Notes: generated by a model not told the origin, from the sequence alone. Counted from the stretch's first letter, positions 3 to 7,152 are shown. The stretch: DNA of 56,894 bases from Patescibacteria group bacterium (GCA_043808365.1 JAZDEZ010000001.1:1-56894), one strand, 5' to 3'. Translations and numbers: made by a program.

Positions 3-149
3 GAAATCTTCAATCCTAAACTCACCGAGTGGTTGATTGAATACAACTCGGTCAGGCCGCACCAAGCGCTTGGGTACCAGACCCCTTTGGCGTTCGCTGA
101 ATCCACCCTGGGGTTGCACACGATGTGGTCATCACGTACAATCGCTTGA
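3..149 (+). CDS. DDE (integrase-core/rve) transposase, C-terminal fragment; 5' part outside window
   Basis: Frame 3 reads EIFNPKLTEWLIEYNSVRPHQALGYQTPLAFAESTLGLHTMWSSRTIA*; the W..YN..RPH.ALG..TP block is the conserved C-terminal signature of rve-type transposases (IS481/IS3/ISNCY-like). Confidence 0.7.
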   Translation, partial: EIFNPKLTEWLIEYNSVRPHQALGYQTPLAFAESTLGLHTMWSSRTIA

Positions 150-260
150 CAATACAAACATTCTATGCTAATATTGGTCGTTATCTAGCACCTTTAAAAC
201 TACTTACAAAGCACGGTAGTAATCTAGCAATAAACCCTAACAAAGAAGGAGGATGACGCC

Positions 261-917
261 ATGTCAAAAGACGTGTCCCCATCCGAACAGACAATTACAA
301 AAGGCCAATGCGGTAAGCTCATGGATGTGGGCGTAGACGCACTGGTCAAGAGTGGGTTGCCCAGCGAGCCTACCCAGTATGTTCTTGAGCACGAGAGCAT
401 AGAAATCGCTGCAAATCTGGTGGCCGATATCCGCACCCGTGTCGAAGCGCGCATCCGCGCCACCGAACCCCACATACTCAAGCGCCTGCCGTTCGATCCT
501 GAGAAGTTCATCGGGAAAGGCTGGTCGGTTGACGAACAGGTCTCAAAGCGCACTGGGGATAACCTGGATGCCGGTCAGATTACCCGTAAGGATTACCTCA
601 AAAAAGGTGAGCCCTCCATTAACGGAGAAGAGCGTCTTCGGCGTATCAAAGCCTCAGGCGAAGCAGACTTACAGCTCGATGCGTCTGACTGTGTCGCTCT
701 TTACCAAGAGGATGGCCAGAAAACCCTGCGTTGGCTTTACGAGACCAGGGGAGTCACTTGGCTCTCTTGCTGGGGAACTATTCTGCGCGACCCGGATGGC
801 GACCGCAGCGTCCTCTGCCTCTGTCGGCACGAGGACGGTTCCTGGCTCTGGGACTACTTTTGGGTCGACCACGACGGTTGGGACGCCGGCGGTCCTGCGG
901 GTGTGCTCGCAAAGTAG
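261..917 (+). CDS. DGR target-like (variable) protein candidate, 218 aa
   Basis: ORF with AAGGAGG 8 nt before the ATG; no signal peptide; the last ~42 codons (ILRDPDGD...GSWLWDYFWVDHDGWDAGGPAGVLAK) are homologous to the AAC-rich repeat at 1348-1469; visibly more GC-rich than its surroundings. Confidence 0.6.
   Translation: MSKDVSPSEQTITKGQCGKLMDVGVDALVKSGLPSEPTQYVLEHESIEIAANLVADIRTRVEARIRATEPHILKRLPFDPEKFIGKGWSVDEQVSKRTGDNLDAGQITRKDYLKKGEPSINGEERLRRIKASGEADLQLDASDCVALYQEDGQKTLRWLYETRGVTWLSCWGTILRDPDGDRSVLCLCRHEDGSWLWDYFWVDHDGWDAGGPAGVLAK
786..912 (+). repeat. VR-like segment at the 3' end of the target-like gene
   Basis: Hand alignment to 1348-1469: blocks 15/18, 23/33 and 9/9 identical; most mismatches lie opposite TR adenines, but there are also non-A mismatches and indels. 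Confidence 0.5.
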
Positions 918-987
918 CTTTTCGTCCTTGGGACTTATGAACCTTAGATCCTTTGGAGCTTTGGTTTTAGTCCTTGGACCAAATCAC

Positions 988-1030
988 AAAACCCTTACAT
1001 TTTGTCATCAGACACAGGTGTAAGGGTTTT
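988..1030 (+). terminator. Hairpin plus T-run after the target-like gene
   Basis: AAAACCCTTACA (988-999) pairs with TGTAAGGGTTTT (1019-1030), 19-nt loop, followed by T/A-rich sequence. Confidence 0.5.
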
Positions 1031-1347
1031 ATATTTATGCTAAAATCAATGTGGTAGTAGGCGAATATGCCCCGACGTATCGTCGGGGCTGCCGAACCCA
1101 GTATCCATACACTCCTGAATGTCTCTGACTACGGTTTGAGACAGCGTGATGTATGCAGAATCTTCAAAATGAAGCTACTTGGTGCGTAATGCTAGGGCAT
1201 TATATATGCCAAATACGATACAATCCTAAGAGTCCCGACGTTGCGGACTCGTAAGGAATTTTGGTAGGTCGGGATCCCGATTTCCGTCAACAGTGGAACA
1301 TCGGGATATTCGAGGGATGGTGGCACGGACGGCGTGTTATACGCAAT

Positions 1348-1469
1348 CGCAACTCGGATGGCAACCTCTATGTGCGTTACCTCAACTGGGATGGTAGTCA
1401 GTGGAACTGGAACAACAACTGGCTCGACAATGACTGGAACGACAATAACCCGGCTGCGCTTGCTCGCAA
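1348..1469 (+). repeat. DGR template repeat (TR) candidate
   Basis: Intergenic; one frame gives RNRNSDGNLYVRYLNWDGSQWNWNNNWLDNDWNDNNPAALARN, i.e. AAC/AAT codons interspersed with fixed TGG codons as in known TRs; homologous to 786-912; exact TR borders uncertain (may start near 1290). Confidence 0.6.
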
Positions 1470-1481
1470 CTCACTTCATTT

Positions 1482-1515
1482 CTCCTCTAATATCTATTAG
1501 GGGAGTTTTATTTTT
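1482..1515 (+). terminator. Possible intrinsic terminator directly after the TR
   Basis: CTCCTC (1482-1487) pairs with GGGGAG (1500-1505, one G-U pair), followed by TTTTATTTTT; overlaps the 3' end of avd on the other strand. Confidence 0.4.
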
Positions 1516-1895
1516 GAGAGTTGTCCATTCCAGCCCCCGAGCATTTTACCGATTTCATCTATTTTCACCGACAGCACGATGTACTTTTTGTTATCCAGCG
1601 ACTTTGTTTCCCATAATATCATTAGGAGTATTTTCAGGGTGTCAGTTTTCTGAATAGCTCGTCTGACATAGGGCAGTTTTTCAGTTCGTCCTAAGAAACT
1701 CGCAGTTGCAATCGCTTCTATTGTTTCAATGAATAGAGTATCAATGCGCTGGCCAAGCGTGTGCCTGTGCGTTTTGGGTATTGTCTGAAAATAACCAAAC
1801 CAAAGCAGATAGGTGCTTTTTACCTTTTGCAGTACTGGCAAAAGTCTGGGGGGGGGGGTAGAATTAGCGGTATGAGTAAGATTCAACTCGTTCAT
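1497..1895 (-). CDS. avd: Avd-like accessory variability determinant (four-helix-bundle family)
   Basis: FQTIPKTHRHTLGQRIDTLFIETIEAI...KIDEIGKMLGGW matches remembered Bordetella phage BPP-1 Avd blocks (SIPRKHGVAREMF..., IAEVGRILGSW); an alternative TTG start at 1841 would give 114 aa. Confidence 0.75.
   Translation of the reverse strand: MNELNLTHTANSTPPPRLLPVLQKVKSTYLLWFGYFQTIPKTHRHTLGQRIDTLFIETIEAIATASFLGRTEKLPYVRRAIQKTDTLKILLMILWETKSLDNKKYIVLSVKIDEIGKMLGGWNGQLSKIKLP
1848..1858. repeat. G11/C11 homopolymer tract
   Basis: Eleven consecutive G on the + strand; encodes TPPPR in the avd N-terminus if avd starts at 1895; ends 14 nt upstream of the RT ATG at 1872. Confidence 0.95.
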
Positions 1896-2975
1896 GCGTA
1901 TCAGTATATCATTTCCATGGAGAATTTACTTGCCGCGTGGCAGGAATTTTTAGCTGGCAAGCGCTCTCGCCGAGATGTTCAAGAGTATGAGATTAATTTA
2001 ATGTGCAATATTATTTCGCTTCATAATAATCTTGCATCTAAGAAATATACACACTCTCCGTATCAAGCGTTTAATATTTCCGATCCCAAGCCACGCAATA
2101 TCCATAAAGCCAGCGTGCGAGACAGGTTATTACACCATGCGCTGCATCGTGTGTTATATCCGTTTTTTGATCGGACGTTTATTACTGATTCGTATTCGTG
2201 CCGGATTAATAAAGGTACGCATAAAGCCATTAATAGGTTTCATGCGTTTGCGTATAAGGCGTCACACAATAATACTAAAACCCTTTGGGTGTTAAAGTGT
2301 GATATTAAAAAGTTCTTTGCTTCAATAGATCAGTCAATCTTGATTGATATTATTAATGAATACATTCCCGACCAAGATATCCGCTGGCTTATAGGTCAGA
2401 TTGTCGGCAGTTTTCATTTAACCGAAGAAGGCAGGGGATTACCGCTTGGCAACCTGACATCCCAACTGTTTGTAAACGTGTACATGAACGAATTTGATCA
2501 ATTCGTAAAGCATAAGCTCAAAGCAAAGCATTACATACGATACGCGGATGATTTTGTTTTTATGTCAAACAGCAAATCATGGCTGGGATCACTTATTCCC
2601 TCGATTAGTGGTTTTTTGACAGCCAGACTTCAGCTCACACTACACCCGCAGAAATTGTTTCTGAAGACGTTGGCATCAGGCGTTGATTTTCTGGGGTGGA
2701 TACATTTTCCAGATCATCGAGTGTTGCGTACCACGGCTCGACGGCGGATGGCGAGCCGTATTATGGAACATCCAACTAATGAAACAATTCAGTCTTACTT
2801 AGGCTTGCTCAAACATGGGAATACTGAGAAAATAAAGTCGCAAATACTGGACAGCCAATACTATGCTGAAGTAAGCCCCGCCCGCTTCGCCTTGCGAAGC
2901 AAGGCGGGCGCGGCAAATGAGTCTCGGCCGGAGGCTGATCCGCCTTTGGCGGAAAATGTGAGACACCAGGTATGA
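1872..2975 (+). CDS. DGR-type reverse transcriptase
   Basis: MSKIQLVHAY...; RT motifs including GLPLGNLTSQLFVNVY (the [ILV]GxxxSQ signature of DGR RTs) and catalytic YADD (IRYADDFVF); no maturase/endonuclease extension; the ORF track start at 1761 is probably too early. Confidence 0.85.
   Translation: MSKIQLVHAYQYIISMENLLAAWQEFLAGKRSRRDVQEYEINLMCNIISLHNNLASKKYTHSPYQAFNISDPKPRNIHKASVRDRLLHHALHRVLYPFFDRTFITDSYSCRINKGTHKAINRFHAFAYKASHNNTKTLWVLKCDIKKFFASIDQSILIDIINEYIPDQDIRWLIGQIVGSFHLTEEGRGLPLGNLTSQLFVNVYMNEFDQFVKHKLKAKHYIRYADDFVFMSNSKSWLGSLIPSISGFLTARLQLTLHPQKLFLKTLASGVDFLGWIHFPDHRVLRTTARRRMASRIMEHPTNETIQSYLGLLKHGNTEKIKSQILDSQYYAEVSPARFALRSKAGAANESRPEADPPLAENVRHQV
2879..2910. repeat. GC-rich nested hairpin (REP-like) inside the RT 3' tail
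   Basis: Inner stem CTTCGC/GCGAAG (loop CTT) within outer stem GCCCG/CGGGC; same architecture as 24288-24325 upstream of the RAYT gene. Confidence 0.5.
2927..2955 (+). repeat. 29-nt hairpin repeat, copy 1 (RT tail)
   Basis: GCCGGAGGCTGATCCGCCTTTGGCGGAAA equals the reverse complement of 4916-4944 in ileS at 28/29 positions. Confidence 0.8.
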
Positions 2976-4164: not shown

Positions 4165-7152
4165 ATGCCTGACAATAAACAAAAGGCACCGACACCGAAA
4201 TCAATCTTCCCAGGGCTTGAAAAGGAAGTATTGGCTTTTTGGGAAAAGGAAAATATTTTTCAGAAGACGCTGGACCAGACGAAAACTGGAAAACCGTTTG
4301 TTTTTTTCGAAGGGCCGCCGACGGCTAATGGCAAGCCAGGCATCCACCATGTCTTAGCCCGGGCGTATAAGGACGTTATCGTCCGGTACAAGACCATGCG
4401 CGGTTTTTACGTCGAGCGGAAAGCCGGCTGGGATACGCACGGATTGCCAGTCGAGATTCAAGTCGAAAAAGAGCTGGGCATATCGGGCAAGCCGGAGATC
4501 GAAAAATTCGGCATTGAGGCATTCAACAAAAAATGCCGGGCCAGCGCGTGGAAATACAAGGCTGATTTGGAAGCCATGACCCGCAAAATCGGCTTTTGGC
4601 TGGACATGGAGCATCCGTATGTGACATATGAAAATAAATACATTGAGTCATTGTGGTGGGTGATCAAGCAGATCTGGGACAAAGGCTTATTATACAAAGG
4701 CCATAAAGTCGTGCCGCATTGCCCTCGCTGCGGTACGGCGTTGTCATCGCATGAGGTGGCGCTCGGCTATAAATCTGTTGAGGAGAATTCCGTTTACGTT
4801 AAGTTCAAAGTTGTCGGCCAAGAGAACACTTATATATTATCTTGGACTACGACACCGTGGACCTTACCTGGAAATGTTGCGCTTGCGGTAGGCGAGGATA
4901 TTGTTTATGTAAAGATTTCCGCCAAAGGCGGATCCGCCTCCGGCGGAAAAAATATAAGATATATTGTAGCGGAGGCGGTAGCAGGGAAGCTTTTTCCGGA
5001 AGCTGAAGTCGTGGAAACCCTAGCCGGCGAACAATTGGTTGGTTTGGAGTACGAACCGCTGTATGACATCAAGCCTTTGCAGAAAGAAACCGCGTATAAA
5101 GTTTATGCCGCTGATTTCGTCAATACCGAGGAGGGTACGGGCGTCGTCCATACTGCCGTCATGTACGGCGAGGACGATTTTCAGTTGGGAGAAAAAGTCG
5201 GTTTGCCGAAACACCATACTGTTGATCTGAACGGCAATTTTACGGCAGAAGTGTCCAAATGGGCCGGCCAATTCGTTAAAGATAAGTCAGTGGAAAAGGG
5301 GATTGTCGCTGATTTGCGTGAACGAGGACTGTTGCTGAAAGAGGAAATGTACCGCCATGATTACCCGTTTTGCTGGCGATGCGGGACGCCGCTCTTATAC
5401 TATGCAAAGGATTCATGGTTTATAATGGTTAGTAAAATTAGGGATGAGTTAATTAGGAACAATGAAACGATAAACTGGGTACCTGGGTACATCAAACACG
5501 GGCGGTTCGGCGAATGGCTGAACGAGGTCAAGGACTGGGCGTTTTCCCGCGAACGGTATTGGGGCACGCCGCTCCCGATCTGGGAATGCGAGAAATGCCA
5601 GGCGCGCGAATGCATCGGCTCGGTTGAAGAGCTCGTAGCTCGTAGCAAGGAGCACGTAGCAGGAAGCCACGCGCCACAAGCCACGCGCCACAAGCTGGAT
5701 TTGCACAAGCCATATGTCGATAAAATAACGTTTGTTTGTTCGTGCGGCGGGAACATGCACCGGGTCAAGGAAGTGGCGGATGTCTGGTTTGATTCCGGCG
5801 CCATGCCGTTTGCCCAGTGGCATTATCCGTTTGAGAATAAGGATCGCATTGACGCCGGCGGCAGTTATCCGGCTGATTTCATTGCCGAGGGCATTGACCA
5901 GACTCGGGGCTGGTTTTATACCTTGTTGACCGTCGCCACGCTGCTTGGTCATGGAGCGCCGTACAAGAATGTTATCTGCCTGAATCTGGTTTTTGACGCA
6001 AAAGGTCAAAAGATGTCCAAGTCAAAGGGCAATATCATTGACCCGTTTTATATTATCGACAAGTTCGGCGCCGACACGCTCCGTTGGTTTTTGTTTACCG
6101 TCAACCAGCCCGGGGACGCCAAGCTTTTCGACGAATCTCAATTGGACGAGGTCGTAAAGAAGCAGTGGCTGGTCCTTTGGAATATTTTGTCATTCTGGAA
6201 GATGCATGTCGGCCAGGCTAAAGATTCGTATCTTGATGAAAAGTTTACACAACCGCGAAGCGGGCACGTCCTGGACAAATGGATTCTGGCCAAGACGAAC
6301 GACACTATCGGCCAATGCACTAACCATTTGGAAAATTACAACATGACTGAATCCGGGCGCTTGATCGCTGAATTGATAAAGGAGCTGTCAACGTGGTACG
6401 TACGGAGGTCCCGTAACCGGTTCAAGATTGATGGGCAGGACAAGCAGGATGCCTTGGCGGTCTTGCGTTTTGCGTTGGTTACTATTGCCCGGTTACTGGC
6501 ACCGTATGCGCCGTTCATGGCTGAAGCACTTTACCGTGAAGTCAAGGGCCAGAACGAACCCATGAGCGTGCATCTGGCCGGTTGGCCGTCCGGTGAAGCG
6601 ACGGCAGAAGAAGCCGCGGTCATCCTGAAGCAAATGGTATTGGTCCGCCAGGCGGTTGAGCTTGGCCACAGCCTCCGGAAGGAAAAACAGATCAAGGTCA
6701 GGCAGCCATTGCCGCAATTCATCATTCGCGGCAAGCCACTAGACCCGGCACTGAAAGAGTTGGTCAAGGATGAGGCCAATGTAAAGGAAGTGATCTGCGT
6801 GGAAAAAATGCCCCAAGGCCCGGAATTTGCCGTAAAAGAAGCCGGCAGTCTGGCCGTGGCTCTGGACATGACCATTACGGATGAGCTGAAATATGAAGGC
6901 ATGGTCAGGGAGATGATCCGCCAGATCAATGCCATGCGCAAGGACGCGAAATTGACCATCGGTGACACAGTCGCCTTGTATTATGAAATTCCCGATCAGG
7001 AATTGGAAAAGATGTTCCTCCATTATAAAAATACGATCATCCGCGATGTCATCGCCAGCGGTTGCCTGAAGGGCATCCCTGATAATGTCGACCTGAAGAC
7101 CGTATTTGAAATTGCGGGCGTCCGCGTGACGTTCGGCATCAAAGGGAAATAG
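4165..7152 (+). CDS. ileS: Isoleucyl-tRNA synthetase
   Basis: Class I signatures (PTANGKPGIHHVLAR, KMSKSKGN), WTTTPWTLPGN editing-domain block, zinc CxxC pairs; ATG at 4165 is in frame with the track ORF. Confidence 0.95.
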   Translation: MPDNKQKAPTPKSIFPGLEKEVLAFWEKENIFQKTLDQTKTGKPFVFFEGPPTANGKPGIHHVLARAYKDVIVRYKTMRGFYVERKAGWDTHGLPVEIQVEKELGISGKPEIEKFGIEAFNKKCRASAWKYKADLEAMTRKIGFWLDMEHPYVTYENKYIESLWWVIKQIWDKGLLYKGHKVVPHCPRCGTALSSHEVALGYKSVEENSVYVKFKVVGQENTYILSWTTTPWTLPGNVALAVGEDIVYVKISAKGGSASGGKNIRYIVAEAVAGKLFPEAEVVETLAGEQLVGLEYEPLYDIKPLQKETAYKVYAADFVNTEEGTGVVHTAVMYGEDDFQLGEKVGLPKHHTVDLNGNFTAEVSKWAGQFVKDKSVEKGIVADLRERGLLLKEEMYRHDYPFCWRCGTPLLYYAKDSWFIMVSKIRDELIRNNETINWVPGYIKHGRFGEWLNEVKDWAFSRERYWGTPLPIWECEKCQARECIGSVEELVARSKEHVAGSHAPQATRHKLDLHKPYVDKITFVCSCGGNMHRVKEVADVWFDSGAMPFAQWHYPFENKDRIDAGGSYPADFIAEGIDQTRGWFYTLLTVATLLGHGAPYKNVICLNLVFDAKGQKMSKSKGNIIDPFYIIDKFGADTLRWFLFTVNQPGDAKLFDESQLDEVVKKQWLVLWNILSFWKMHVGQAKDSYLDEKFTQPRSGHVLDKWILAKTNDTIGQCTNHLENYNMTESGRLIAELIKELSTWYVRRSRNRFKIDGQDKQDALAVLRFALVTIARLLAPYAPFMAEALYREVKGQNEPMSVHLAGWPSGEATAEEAAVILKQMVLVRQAVELGHSLRKEKQIKVRQPLPQFIIRGKPLDPALKELVKDEANVKEVICVEKMPQGPEFAVKEAGSLAVALDMTITDELKYEGMVREMIRQINAMRKDAKLTIGDTVALYYEIPDQELEKMFLHYKNTIIRDVIASGCLKGIPDNVDLKTVFEIAGVRVTFGIKGK
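4916..4944 (-). repeat. 29-nt hairpin repeat, copy 2, in frame inside ileS
   Basis: TCCGCCaaaGGCGGA followed by TCCGCCtccGGCGGA (two perfect 6-bp hairpins); translated as SAKGGSASGGK. Confidence 0.8.
5631..5700 (+). repeat. Heptamer-periodic tract inside ileS
   Basis: gctcgta gctcgta gcaagga gcacgta gcaggaa gccacgc gccacaa gccacgc gccacaa gctggat: ten 7-nt units all starting GC; encodes ELVARSKEHVAGSHAPQATRHKLD. Confidence 0.7.

Follow-up and report, generated by a model that had tools for sequence, protein, structure and literature searches.

The DGRs (diversity-generating retroelements) of Patescibacteria (CPR) form 'DGR clade 2' in Roux et al. 2021 (PMC8144416) and a 'CPR set' with the unknown VR classes UVR1-6 in Wu et al. 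2018 (PMC5758913). The largest published count of non-adenine differences per target is 11 (PMC5758913), and non-adjacent or multiple targets occur in 45 of 372 DGRs, in Treponema, Legionella and others (PMC5758913). Conserved RNAs next to RT (reverse transcriptase) genes have been collected as the Rfam RT motifs (Weinberg et al. 2017, PMC5737381), among which RT-10 is the RNA of the BPP-1 DGR and RT-7 (RF03028) is unassigned. The locus described here, on a stretch of 56,894 nt that we analysed as a whole (the window), is an authentic DGR of the Patescibacteria (CPR) clade, its cassette being uncoupled and mosaic. The kind of element is already known, and the locus refines the DGR paradigm for a poorly studied clade and does not overturn it.

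All four parts (RT, Avd, TR and target gene) were found within 2.7 kb, at or near the places where a sequence-only reading had first put them (Table 1). Their order (target, TR, avd on the opposite strand, RT) is the standard one in the clade. The resemblance is well above what chance would give, and over 15 related loci show this layout again.

Table 1. Features of the cassette, in window coordinates.
Feature	Position (nt)	Strand	Remarks
Promoter-like site TTGACA-17-TAATAT	146..174	+	Upstream of target gene; 10/12 matches, consensus match only
Ribosome-binding site AAGGAGGA	247-254	+	Read from sequence, ahead of target gene
'Type-A' DGR target-family gene, 218 aa	261..917	+	Conserved core residues ~70-217
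VR of target gene	786..912	+	In register with type-A TRs elsewhere, not with local TR
Perfect 12-bp hairpin, then T-rich run	988..1030	+	Probable terminator of target gene
Extended -10-like box TATGCTAAAAT (TGnTAnAAT)	1036..1046	+	Kept in 15/15 aligned loci; putative DGR RNA promoter
DGR RNA structured 5' domain	1060..1231	+	Covariation
P1 hairpin	1060-1093	+	5' domain
P2 hairpin	1112-1150	+	5' domain
P6 5' arm	1167-1174	+	Pairs with 1474-1481
P3 5' arm	1182-1193	+	5' domain
P4 hairpin	1196-1210	+	5' domain
P5 5' arm	1223-1231	+	5' domain
74-nt insertion, two small hairpins, P5 terminal loop	1241..1314	+	Window only; boundaries ambiguous by few nt
P5 3' arm	1310-1318	+	Alignment pairing
P3 3' arm	1331-1342	+	Alignment pairing
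TR, 'type-B' lineage, ...RNSDGNLYVRYLNWDGSQWNWNNNWLDNDWNDNNPAAL...	1345..1470	+	Span set by cognate pairs elsewhere
P6 3' arm	1474-1481	+	Alignment pairing
Intrinsic terminator hairpin and T run	1482-1505, T run to 1515	+	Putative DGR RNA 3' end; compensatory changes in relatives
Avd accessory gene, ORF 132 aa	1497..1895	-	Pfam bAvd
G11 homopolymer	1848..1858	.	Within 30-nt gap between divergent Avd/RT starts
DGR-type RT, 367 aa, core intact	1872..2975	+	GLPLGNLTSQLFVN + YADD; bRT similarity

The RT carries motif 4 as LGNLTSQ (pattern [I/V/L]GxxxSQ) together with a catalytic YADD, as expected of a DGR-clade enzyme, and its best solved relative is BPP-1 bRT (8ub7; E 1.7e-44, 156 bits), to which residues 12-311 align, IGSLTSQLFAN and YMDD included. 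Group II RTs follow at E 1e-20, and group II and 'retron-type' RTs score at most 77 bits, so that among solved relatives the enzyme sides with bRT and not with retron, Abi or group II RTs; the DGR-type RT that had been read at this ORF is thereby confirmed. NCBIfam holds no DGR RT model, and every NCBIfam RT match on this protein lies under the cut-off of the model concerned. The C-terminal tail of 36 aa is absent from relatives (311-333 aa) and arises from read-through into a hairpin and a repeat element. The minus-strand ORF proposed as Avd is indeed one, with a match to Pfam bAvd above the cut-off (1.3e-12, 48.6 bits; cut-off 40) and a further match to NCBIfam DivGenRetAVD that stays under that model's cut-off of 80 (2.8e-18, 66 bits); a direct sequence search of Avd against solved structures did not retrieve BPP-1 Avd. 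Because of its homology with the 114-aa Avd ORF of the related locus L001 (91% amino acid identity), the true start is probably the TTG at 1841, which would give 114 aa. Runs of G8-G13 are found at the place of the G11 homopolymer in each related locus examined.

The AAC-rich template repeat reported at 1348-1469 is present and, by comparison with relatives, slightly longer (126 nt); it holds 35 adenines (28% of the TR), and 13 of its 42 in-frame codons are AAC or AAT. Likewise, the 218-aa ORF ends in a Trp-scaffolded segment homologous to the TR and belongs to a family of true DGR targets, in which the VR occupies the extreme C terminus. The claim that this TR is the template of the VR at 786-912 did not survive: the best alignment of the two has 21 mismatches at adenines, 23 at other bases and 7 gap columns, with three indels (+3, +3 and -1 nt), and within the window we found no TR/VR pair that differs (almost) only at adenines and without indels, as a complete DGR would require. 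At the candidate IMH region, the homology in cognate relatives stops at the GC-rich ...GCTCGCAA at the stop codon, and in the window TR and VR share only TGCTCGCAA (9 nt), 1 nt off the register of the upstream sequence. An adenine-tolerant scan and blastn of the TR on both strands of the whole 56.9-kb window returned no other candidate VR, the sole matches being a partial, out-of-register one at 786-888 and one chance match, and tblastn of type-B targets against the window detected no type-B target gene. A protein search with the TR 'ORF' retrieved only other spurious TR-ORFs (37) and no VR-bearing proteins. The A-to-N IUPAC pattern of the 3' 67 nt of the TR had 0 matches in JGI metagenome contigs; as it missed the window's own TR too, the source sample is absent from that collection and the search is uninformative on the source genome.

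Comparison with related loci reveals where the VR and the TR belong. Cognate TR/VR pairs in relatives show 14-19 mismatches at adenines, 0-2 at other bases and no gaps: L017 has 19, 0 and 0, respectively, L031 has 14, 2 and 0, and L011-L014 have 16 at adenines and only 2 others, both within the final 4 bases of the alignment, beyond the VR. The pairs of L020, L001 and L006 are near-clean, and L034-L037 all possess an adjacent cognate type-B target; TR and VR thus differ (almost) only at adenines in L017, L011, L031, L020, L001, L006 and L034-L037. The window VR is a better fit to TRs from foreign genomes than to the local one, with mismatches at 19 of 33 adenine positions and 7 of 93 other positions of the L020 TR and no gaps. 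Since it is in register with foreign type-A TRs and not with the local TR, we read it as a legacy (frozen) VR. The window TR aligns ungapped with the L017 and L015a TR regions at 84% identity, versus 69-71% identity with many gaps to type-A TRs, and the cognate targets of type-B TRs elsewhere form a distantly homologous family of 187-225 aa, distinct from type A. The combination of a type-A target with a type-B TR has precedents in L015, L017 and L002: in L015, two cassettes with near-identical type-B TRs lie 6 kb from each other and one of them adjoins a type-A target; in L017, A-target, B-target and type-B TR follow one another in tandem; and in L002 the VR is a hybrid, with 75 nt at its 3' end in clean adenine-only register with a type-B TR. 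No VR differences were seen across samples of the same population: within L011-L014, within L015/L016 and within L003/L022, the assembled VRs were all identical.

The target family numbers 1062 cluster representatives at E<=1e-3 and at least 1000 clusters at 50% identity, and the labels on its members are mostly Patescibacteria. Neither a signal peptide nor a TM segment nor a Pfam domain is present in the window protein, and Pfam and NCBIfam searches place it in no family. Column entropy in the family is 2.58 bits at codons where type-A TRs carry an adenine in the first or second position, as against 0.54 bits at the remaining codons (Mann-Whitney p = 2.4e-8); the family is thus hypervariable at TR-adenine codons, and the window VR shares this relative to type-A TRs, not to the local TR. 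AF2 models of the target reach a pLDDT of 91.5 (whole protein) and 95.1 (residues 102-218), and Foldseek found no neighbour at E<0.1 for the full model against PDB and BFVD or for the domain model against PDB, with zero CLec entries in the top 50. A search of PDB with the target sequence alone yielded no significant match, and a profile search against PDB sequences was empty. The C-type-lectin or Ig fold anticipated for the target was therefore not detected, a second respect in which the window departs from the complete DGR first envisaged, although the order of secondary structure in the model (strand, helix, helix, five strands) does not conflict with a minimal CLec fold. The hairpin behind the target gene also forms at the homologous position of L001.

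As judged from aligned sequences, the predicted DGR RNA is about 460 nt long (about 1050-1515) and its TR is bracketed by a covarying, conserved structure, in which P3 and P6 clamp both ends of the adenine-rich TR. In this structure, derived from a 15-sequence alignment, 93.4% of cells are paired (slid controls: 38-47%), compensatory changes occur in 39 of the 57 pairs, and the covariation score is 0.54 versus 0.27 in shuffles, 0 of 500 of which reached it; 1150-1520 folded as a single sequence fell short of significance (z = -1.6). G4, T6, A7 and T11 of the -10-like box are invariant in alignment A6. In the window, 9 of the 12 P3 positions are paired, versus 97% across the family, because its 5' arm is L020-like and its 3' arm L017-like; by our own pairing of the A6 sequences, the window 5' arm would pair at 12 of 12 positions with the L020 3' arm. 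With P3 mismatched, the DGR RNA may be sub-optimal. The 74-nt insertion marks the left edge of the type-B-like patch, and L036 has a smaller one at the same loop; a repeat or MITE was rejected as its source, no second copy being found in the window or any locus. Rfam gave no match in the window at gathering thresholds, and no Rfam family covers the DGR RNA. The P2 hairpin matches RT-7 weakly (22 bits, E 0.003-0.007; gathering score 116.8), and as this match was not reproduced in L011, L035 or eight related loci, we do not assign the RNA to RT-7.

The mosaic is thus apparent along the cassette: the spacer at 1090-1240 and Avd are nearest to L020/L001 (0.80-0.95 identity), 1328-1460 is nearest to L017 (0.84-0.95), and the flanks of the patch are type-A-like, 1315-1490 is type-B-like, and one covarying helix, P3, is broken across the junction. 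Together these features suggest recombination or, with lower probability, a chimeric assembly. The mismatch between the TR and the adjacent VR apparently stems from replacement of the TR by that of a sister element, and we consider it reasonably probable that this is a genuine CPR DGR whose type-A cassette received a type-B TR by recombination. By analogy with BPP-1, RT-Avd would copy the TR RNA into cDNA with misincorporation opposite adenines, and this cDNA would go on to replace a homologous VR. The VR of the 218-aa gene would originally have been written by a type-A TR; most likely, intragenomic recombination or gene conversion would then have exchanged ~1240-1490 of the type-A cassette for the paralogous type-B piece (P5 loop, P3 3' arm, TR and P6 3' arm). 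The adjacent VR would not have been rewritten since the swap and would be effectively frozen relative to the local TR, and any substrate that the cassette now has would be a type-B target beyond the 57-kb contig.

The same arrangement could mark a decaying orphan that has lost its type-B target, for instance by deletion from an L017-like arrangement, so that nothing is diversified and the intact ORFs merely reflect a recent loss. L017 does have that ancestral arrangement (A-target, B-target, TR, Avd, RT), and the other A-target/B-TR cases, L015b and L002, have a decayed RT or Avd, so that the A-target/B-TR state may be a stage of decay; the lack of a cognate VR within 57 kb, the weakened P3 and the odd read-through tail of the RT fit as well. 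We nonetheless regard an orphan as unlikely, because spacer and Avd are nearer to the type-A loci L020/L001 than to L017, which favours TR replacement over deletion of a B-target, and because the catalytic motifs of the RT, the Avd gene, the adenines of the TR, the promoter box and the terminator are all intact; intact RT, Avd and TR argue against a long-standing loss of function. A chimeric metagenome assembly would give the same mosaic, which is a point against a swap. Here, co-occurring type-A and type-B cassettes would have been joined at conserved k-mers flanking the TR: the patch flanks are highly conserved among cassettes (AAATACGATACAAYCC upstream, the terminator and Avd downstream), genomes with both cassette types exist (L015, L017), and the broken covariation of P3 is also expected from a chimera. 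Such an artefact would need two crossovers within ~250 nt, its junction holds a 74-nt insertion seen in no other locus, and similar A-target/B-TR pairings occur in independent assemblies (L015/L016 from two samples; L002), so we judge it quite improbable. A canonical, self-contained DGR, in which the local TR templates the VR and actively diversifies the 218-aa protein, has the standard order of the four components within 2.7 kb, the 21 of 44 substitutions at adenines and the reported excess of non-adenine differences in CPR DGRs (PMC5758913) in its favour, yet it is very improbable, as the adenine enrichment arises because the two TR types are homologous with Asn codons at the same scaffold positions, a single retrohoming event would erase all three indels and the 23 non-adenine mismatches, that number exceeds the published maximum (PMC5758913), and foreign type-A TRs fit the VR far better.

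TR replacement in a type-A cassette thus being the preferred reading, TR segments appear mobile between paralogous cassettes, which bears on the evolution of the DGR target range, and a target may be left behind with a frozen repertoire or receive a new template in part, as in L002. A bolder reading, less likely than not, is that the clade combines a VR scaffold that is neither CLec nor Ig, a 5' RNA domain in the role of the 3' spacer and TR exchange between paralogous cassettes. If so, a VR on a compact alpha/beta domain of ~145 aa would be a third scaffold for DGR hypervariation, on small, apparently cytoplasmic proteins; a covarying multi-helix domain 5' of the TR, clamping via P3 and P6, would replace the BPP-1 3' spacer; and TR exchange would re-program a target's repertoire, with the window as an intermediate and the hybrid VR of L002 as a product. 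For a whole clade of CPR DGRs, the RNA structure around the TR offers a hypothesis for template recognition by RT-Avd in the absence of a 3' spacer. The large family of small targets, with a confidently predicted fold that lacks a known neighbour, would be a good candidate for structure determination.

Set against the BPP-1 DGR (mtd-VR, avd, TR, brt), which has the closest solved relative of its RT, the window shares the [I/L]GxxxSQ and Y[A/M]DD motifs, an Avd-family accessory protein and an AAC-rich TR with homology to the target ORF's 3' end. It differs in gene order and orientation, in its small target, in which neither a signal peptide nor a CLec fold is detectable, in a local TR and VR forming a non-cognate pair, and in a structured RNA that lies mainly 5' of the TR and has only ~45 nt on the 3' side (helix arm and terminator), whereas BPP-1 has a functional spacer 3' of the TR. 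Like the Rfam RT motifs, this is a conserved structured RNA adjoining an RT gene. The cassette resembles other CPR DGRs in that it is chromosomal, with a single adjacent target-family gene, in that target homologues are mostly labelled Patescibacteria, and in that targets are devoid of transmembrane or recognisable domains (PMC8144416, PMC5758913). The surveys of CPR DGRs select loci by adenine-biased TR/VR pairs, by which the window locus would fail; mosaic loci are therefore filtered out or mis-paired. Multi-target DGRs offer a further parallel, as L017 and L015 carry two target-family genes near one cassette and the window would be of the trans-acting kind if its type-B TR acts on a target at another place in the genome; the assigned targets of those DGRs differ from the TR only at adenines, unlike the target-family gene nearest to the TR in the window.

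The four parts of a compact diversity-generating retroelement (DGR) proposed in the sequence-only reading, namely a target gene, a template repeat (TR), the accessory protein Avd and a reverse transcriptase (RT), were all present within 3 kb of the window start (see table). The Avd assignment was borne out by a Pfam bAvd match of the minus-strand ORF over the gathering score (1.3e-12), and this ORF also matched NCBIfam DivGenRetAVD at 2.8e-18, under that model's strict cut-off. The RT ORF is RVT_1 in Pfam, and its NCBIfam matches (group II, Drt and retron models) are all sub-threshold. When compared with all solved structures, its top match by a wide margin was the RT of the BPP-1 DGR (8ub7, at 156 bits and E 1.7e-44), in an alignment spanning residues 12-311 that includes IGSLTSQLFAN/YMDD, whereas group II and 'retron-type' RTs reached at most 77 bits. 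Since the BPP-1 enzyme outscores these other classes by far, the RT is DGR-type, as had been claimed.

Features of the DGR locus and of two loci fetched for comparison (window positions unless stated)
Feature	Position	Strand	Details
IS3-type transposase fragment	3-149	+	C-terminal 48 codons; Pfam rve_3, 1.6e-08
Target ORF	261-917	+	218 aa, C-terminal end ...GSWLWDYFWVDHDGWDAGGPAGVLAK
Extended -10-like box	1038-1046		TGnTAnAAT
P1	1060-1093		covarying helix
P2	1112-1150		covarying helix
P6	1167-1174 with 1474-1481		covarying helix
P3	1182-1193 with 1331-1342		covarying helix
P4	1196-1210		covarying helix
P5	1223-1231 with 1310-1318		covarying helix
Insertion	1241-1314		74 nt
Asn/Trp-rich segment (TR)	~1345-1470		type-B TR, 35 adenines
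Terminator hairpin and T run	1482-1515
Avd ORF	1497-1895	-	Pfam bAvd
G run	1848-1858		G11
RT ORF	1872-2975	+	367 aa, with GLPLGNLTSQLFVN and YADD
RT tail	2866-2975		GC-rich inverted repeat at ~2866-2904
27-nt repeat, copy in RT tail	2930-2956	+	GGAGGCTGATCCGCCTTTGGCGGAAAA
27-nt repeat, copy in ileS	4915-4941	-	in-frame AKGGSASGGK
L017, tandem arrangement	160-2381 of L017		A-target, B-target, type-B TR
L015, full type-B DGR	1263-3698 of L015
L015, A-target/TR/Avd-remnant cluster	7122-8454 of L015

Among 37 related loci fetched for comparison (handles L001-L037), Avd is 91-92% identical in amino acids to those of L020 and L001, and the RT is 72% identical to that of L001. Comparison with its homologue in L001, an ORF of 114 aa, suggests that Avd probably starts at TTG 1841, with 30 nt separating this start from that of the RT. 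Between these divergent starts lies a run of 8 to 13 G residues, present in 100% of the related loci examined (L001, L006, L011, L015, L017, L036, L037), that could be a strong ribosome-binding site, a promoter spacer or a slippage-prone switch. The RT extends 36 codons beyond the stop position of its relatives, and this tail, which crosses the inverted repeat and then one copy of a hairpin-forming 27-nt repeat (two copies versus 0 expected by chance), looks like a small insertion that has displaced the stop codon. The locus is chromosomal and is bordered by a mobile element, as the IS3-type fragment lies directly upstream of the target promoter; a small membrane protein, ileS, recO, tgt and glycosyltransferases follow downstream.

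Adenine-specific misincorporation by RT-Avd and replacement of the variable region (VR) by the cDNA are the established mechanism of BPP-1; by analogy, RT-Avd would here reverse-transcribe the TR RNA with errors specifically at adenines, and the cDNA would then replace a homologous VR. Alignment of 1300-1500 with 740-930 revealed clear homology along with many non-adenine differences: across the VR, 21 mismatches fall on TR adenines and 23 on other bases, and 7 columns contain gaps, the indels being two of 3 nt and a 1-nt shift close to the 3' end. In a survey of 372 DGRs, non-A differences reached at most 11 per target and indels occurred in ~7% of DGRs (PMC5758913). With such counts the pairing put forward earlier is not cognate, and the DGR as found lacks the TR/VR relationship that defines these elements; when the full 56.9-kb window was scanned on both strands with tolerance for adenine differences, no second candidate VR appeared. 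The canonical reading, in which the local TR templates the local VR, has the homology in its favour and the non-adenine differences and gaps against it, and is highly improbable.

The TRs of the relatives fall into two lineages. Type-A TRs (...RNPNGNRNVLYLYRNEDGSWNWNYNWVDNDNWNASNPAAVLA) adjoin 218-aa-family genes (A-targets) in L001, L020, L031 and L006 and differ from their VRs almost exclusively at adenines (L031: 14 A, 2 non-A, 0 gaps). Type-B TRs (...RNSDGNLYVRYLNWNGDRWNWNYNWLDNDWNDNNPAAL) adjoin another, distantly homologous 187-225-aa family (B-targets, ...NPHLIPEEWK..FFWGTIYR..., 25-38% identity to the window 218-aa protein), and their TR/VR pairs are clean in L017 (19 A, 0 non-A, 0 gaps), L015a and L034-L037, with L011-L014 showing 16 A mismatches and 2 non-A, both in the final 4 aligned bases, beyond the VR. 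Judged by sequence, the window TR is type B and the window VR is type A. Against the TR regions of L017 and L015a, the TR aligns gaplessly at 84% identity, versus 69-71% and numerous gaps against the TR regions of L020 and L001, and its translation used as a protein query matched type-B TR pseudo-ORFs exclusively; the VR aligns with the L020 TR without gaps and differs at 19 of 33 adenine positions and 7 of 93 others. Assembled VRs are identical between samples of one population in L011-L014 (four samples), L015/L016 and L003/L022, and therefore no turnover is visible there at the consensus level. In some MAG records, contigs with this typically Patescibacteria-type locus (L001, L003, L007 and entry P0012) bear the label 'uncultured Gammaproteobacteria', 'Woesearchaeota archaeon' or 'Zixiibacteriota', probably through binning errors.

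The 218-aa protein has ~50 close homologues, labelled mainly Patescibacteria. At E<=1e-3 a family profile search returned 1062 cluster representatives, among which residues ~70-217 form the conserved core. The C-terminal 45 residues of the family alignment read LSFWGTILRxPxGxRxVLxLxRxxxGSWxWxxxWVxxxxWxxxxPAxVLAS (x, hypervariable), and codons that carry A at position 1 or 2 in type-A TRs have a column entropy of 2.58 bits, versus 0.54 elsewhere (Mann-Whitney p = 2.4e-8). Because the VR fits the L020 TR and family entropy follows type-A adenines, the neighbour gene is a true DGR target with a C-terminal VR, as first proposed, and this VR was written by a type-A template rather than by the local TR. 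For many genes of the 218-aa family, no TR, Avd or RT lies within 3.5-6 kb (L003, L004, L008, L010, L018, L019, L021-L030, L032, L033); two of them sit 17 kb apart on a single 697-kb contig (L029 and L032) and two are in tandem (L030). Such genes are orphan or trans-served targets. We detected no signal peptide, TM segment or Pfam/NCBIfam domain in the target protein, an absence also reported for CPR-clade DGR targets (PMC8144416). AlphaFold2 modelled the full protein at pLDDT 91.5 and pTM 0.80 (residues 102-218, pLDDT 95.1), predicting a helical N-terminal region and a core in which one strand and three helices precede a five-strand meander carrying the VR. The expected CLec or Ig fold was not confirmed, since Foldseek of the models against PDB and BFVD, which may overlook folds as divergent as minimal CLec, found no neighbour (best E 0.14-0.29, TM ~0.2) and a family profile search of PDB sequences was empty; the predicted element order is not incompatible with minimal CLec.

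A structured DGR RNA emerged when 15 loci were aligned over a stretch that starts upstream of the TR and ends at the stop codon of Avd (alignment A6). The extended -10-like box is invariant, and six predicted helices (P1-P6) show abundant compensatory changes: 93.4% of cells are paired versus 38-47% with partners slid, double changes occur in 39 of 57 helix pairs, and the covariation score is 0.54 versus 0.27 shuffled (0 of 500 shuffles reach 0.54). The TR starts 2 nt past P3 and ends 3 nt ahead of P6, so both its ends would be clamped by the 5' domain, and the terminator, which covaries in relatives, directly follows P6. No Rfam family covers this RNA; a weak RT-7 (RF03028) match on P2 (1113-1179, plus strand; 22 bits versus a gathering score of 116.8; E 0.003-0.007) is absent from L011, L035 and eight other related loci, and the relationship is thus unconfirmed. 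Of the RT motifs described by Weinberg et al., RT-10 was attributed to the BPP-1 DGR, and the authors speculated that others likewise function in DGRs (PMC5737381).

Between the target stop codon and the RT start, the window is collinear with both L001 and L020. Sliding identity is highest with these two at 1090-1240 (0.80-0.95) and through Avd, and at 1328-1460 the best relative becomes L017 (0.84-0.95). At the left edge of this L017-like patch, in the P5 loop, sits the 74-nt insertion, which disrupts no helix, forms two small hairpins (one a perfect 8-bp stem, ATCCCGAT...ATCGGGAT) and has no further copy in the window or any fetched locus. P3 pairs at 9 of 12 positions versus 97% family-wide; the 5' arm resembles that of L020 and the 3' arm that of L017, and manual pairing of the A6 sequences gave 12/12 pairs between the window 5' arm and the L020 3' arm. 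This mismatch between arms of different affinity is independent evidence for a junction between them. The best explanation, and in our judgement the probable one, is TR replacement by recombination or gene conversion with a paralogous type-B cassette, whereby ~1240-1490 of a type-A cassette would have been exchanged for the matching type-B segment. As the VR differs from the TR in length and sequence type, it has gone without rewriting since the locus acquired its present TR, and the cassette looks competent, with RT motifs, Avd, 35 TR adenines, promoter box and terminator intact. A-targets neighbour type-B TRs in other assemblies too: the L017 TR is cognate to the B-target only; L015/L016 hold a complete type-B cassette and, 6 kb off, an A-target and then a near-duplicate of that TR and a remnant of Avd; and in L002, which has lost Avd and most of the RT by deletion, the A-target VR has a clean A-only register with a type-B TR restricted to the 3' 75 nt. 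Among the cases seen, only the window combines this arrangement with intact Avd and RT. That the cassette is a decaying orphan descended from an arrangement like that of L017 is unlikely, and a chimeric assembly, set beside these recurrences, is more doubtful still.

The element falls within the CPR DGRs, a known clade, and, lacking the defining TR/VR relationship as found, is a variant state of a known kind. To this clade it adds evidence of TR exchange between paralogous cassettes, a covarying RNA architecture surrounding the TR, and a large family of targets with a fold for which no neighbour is known.
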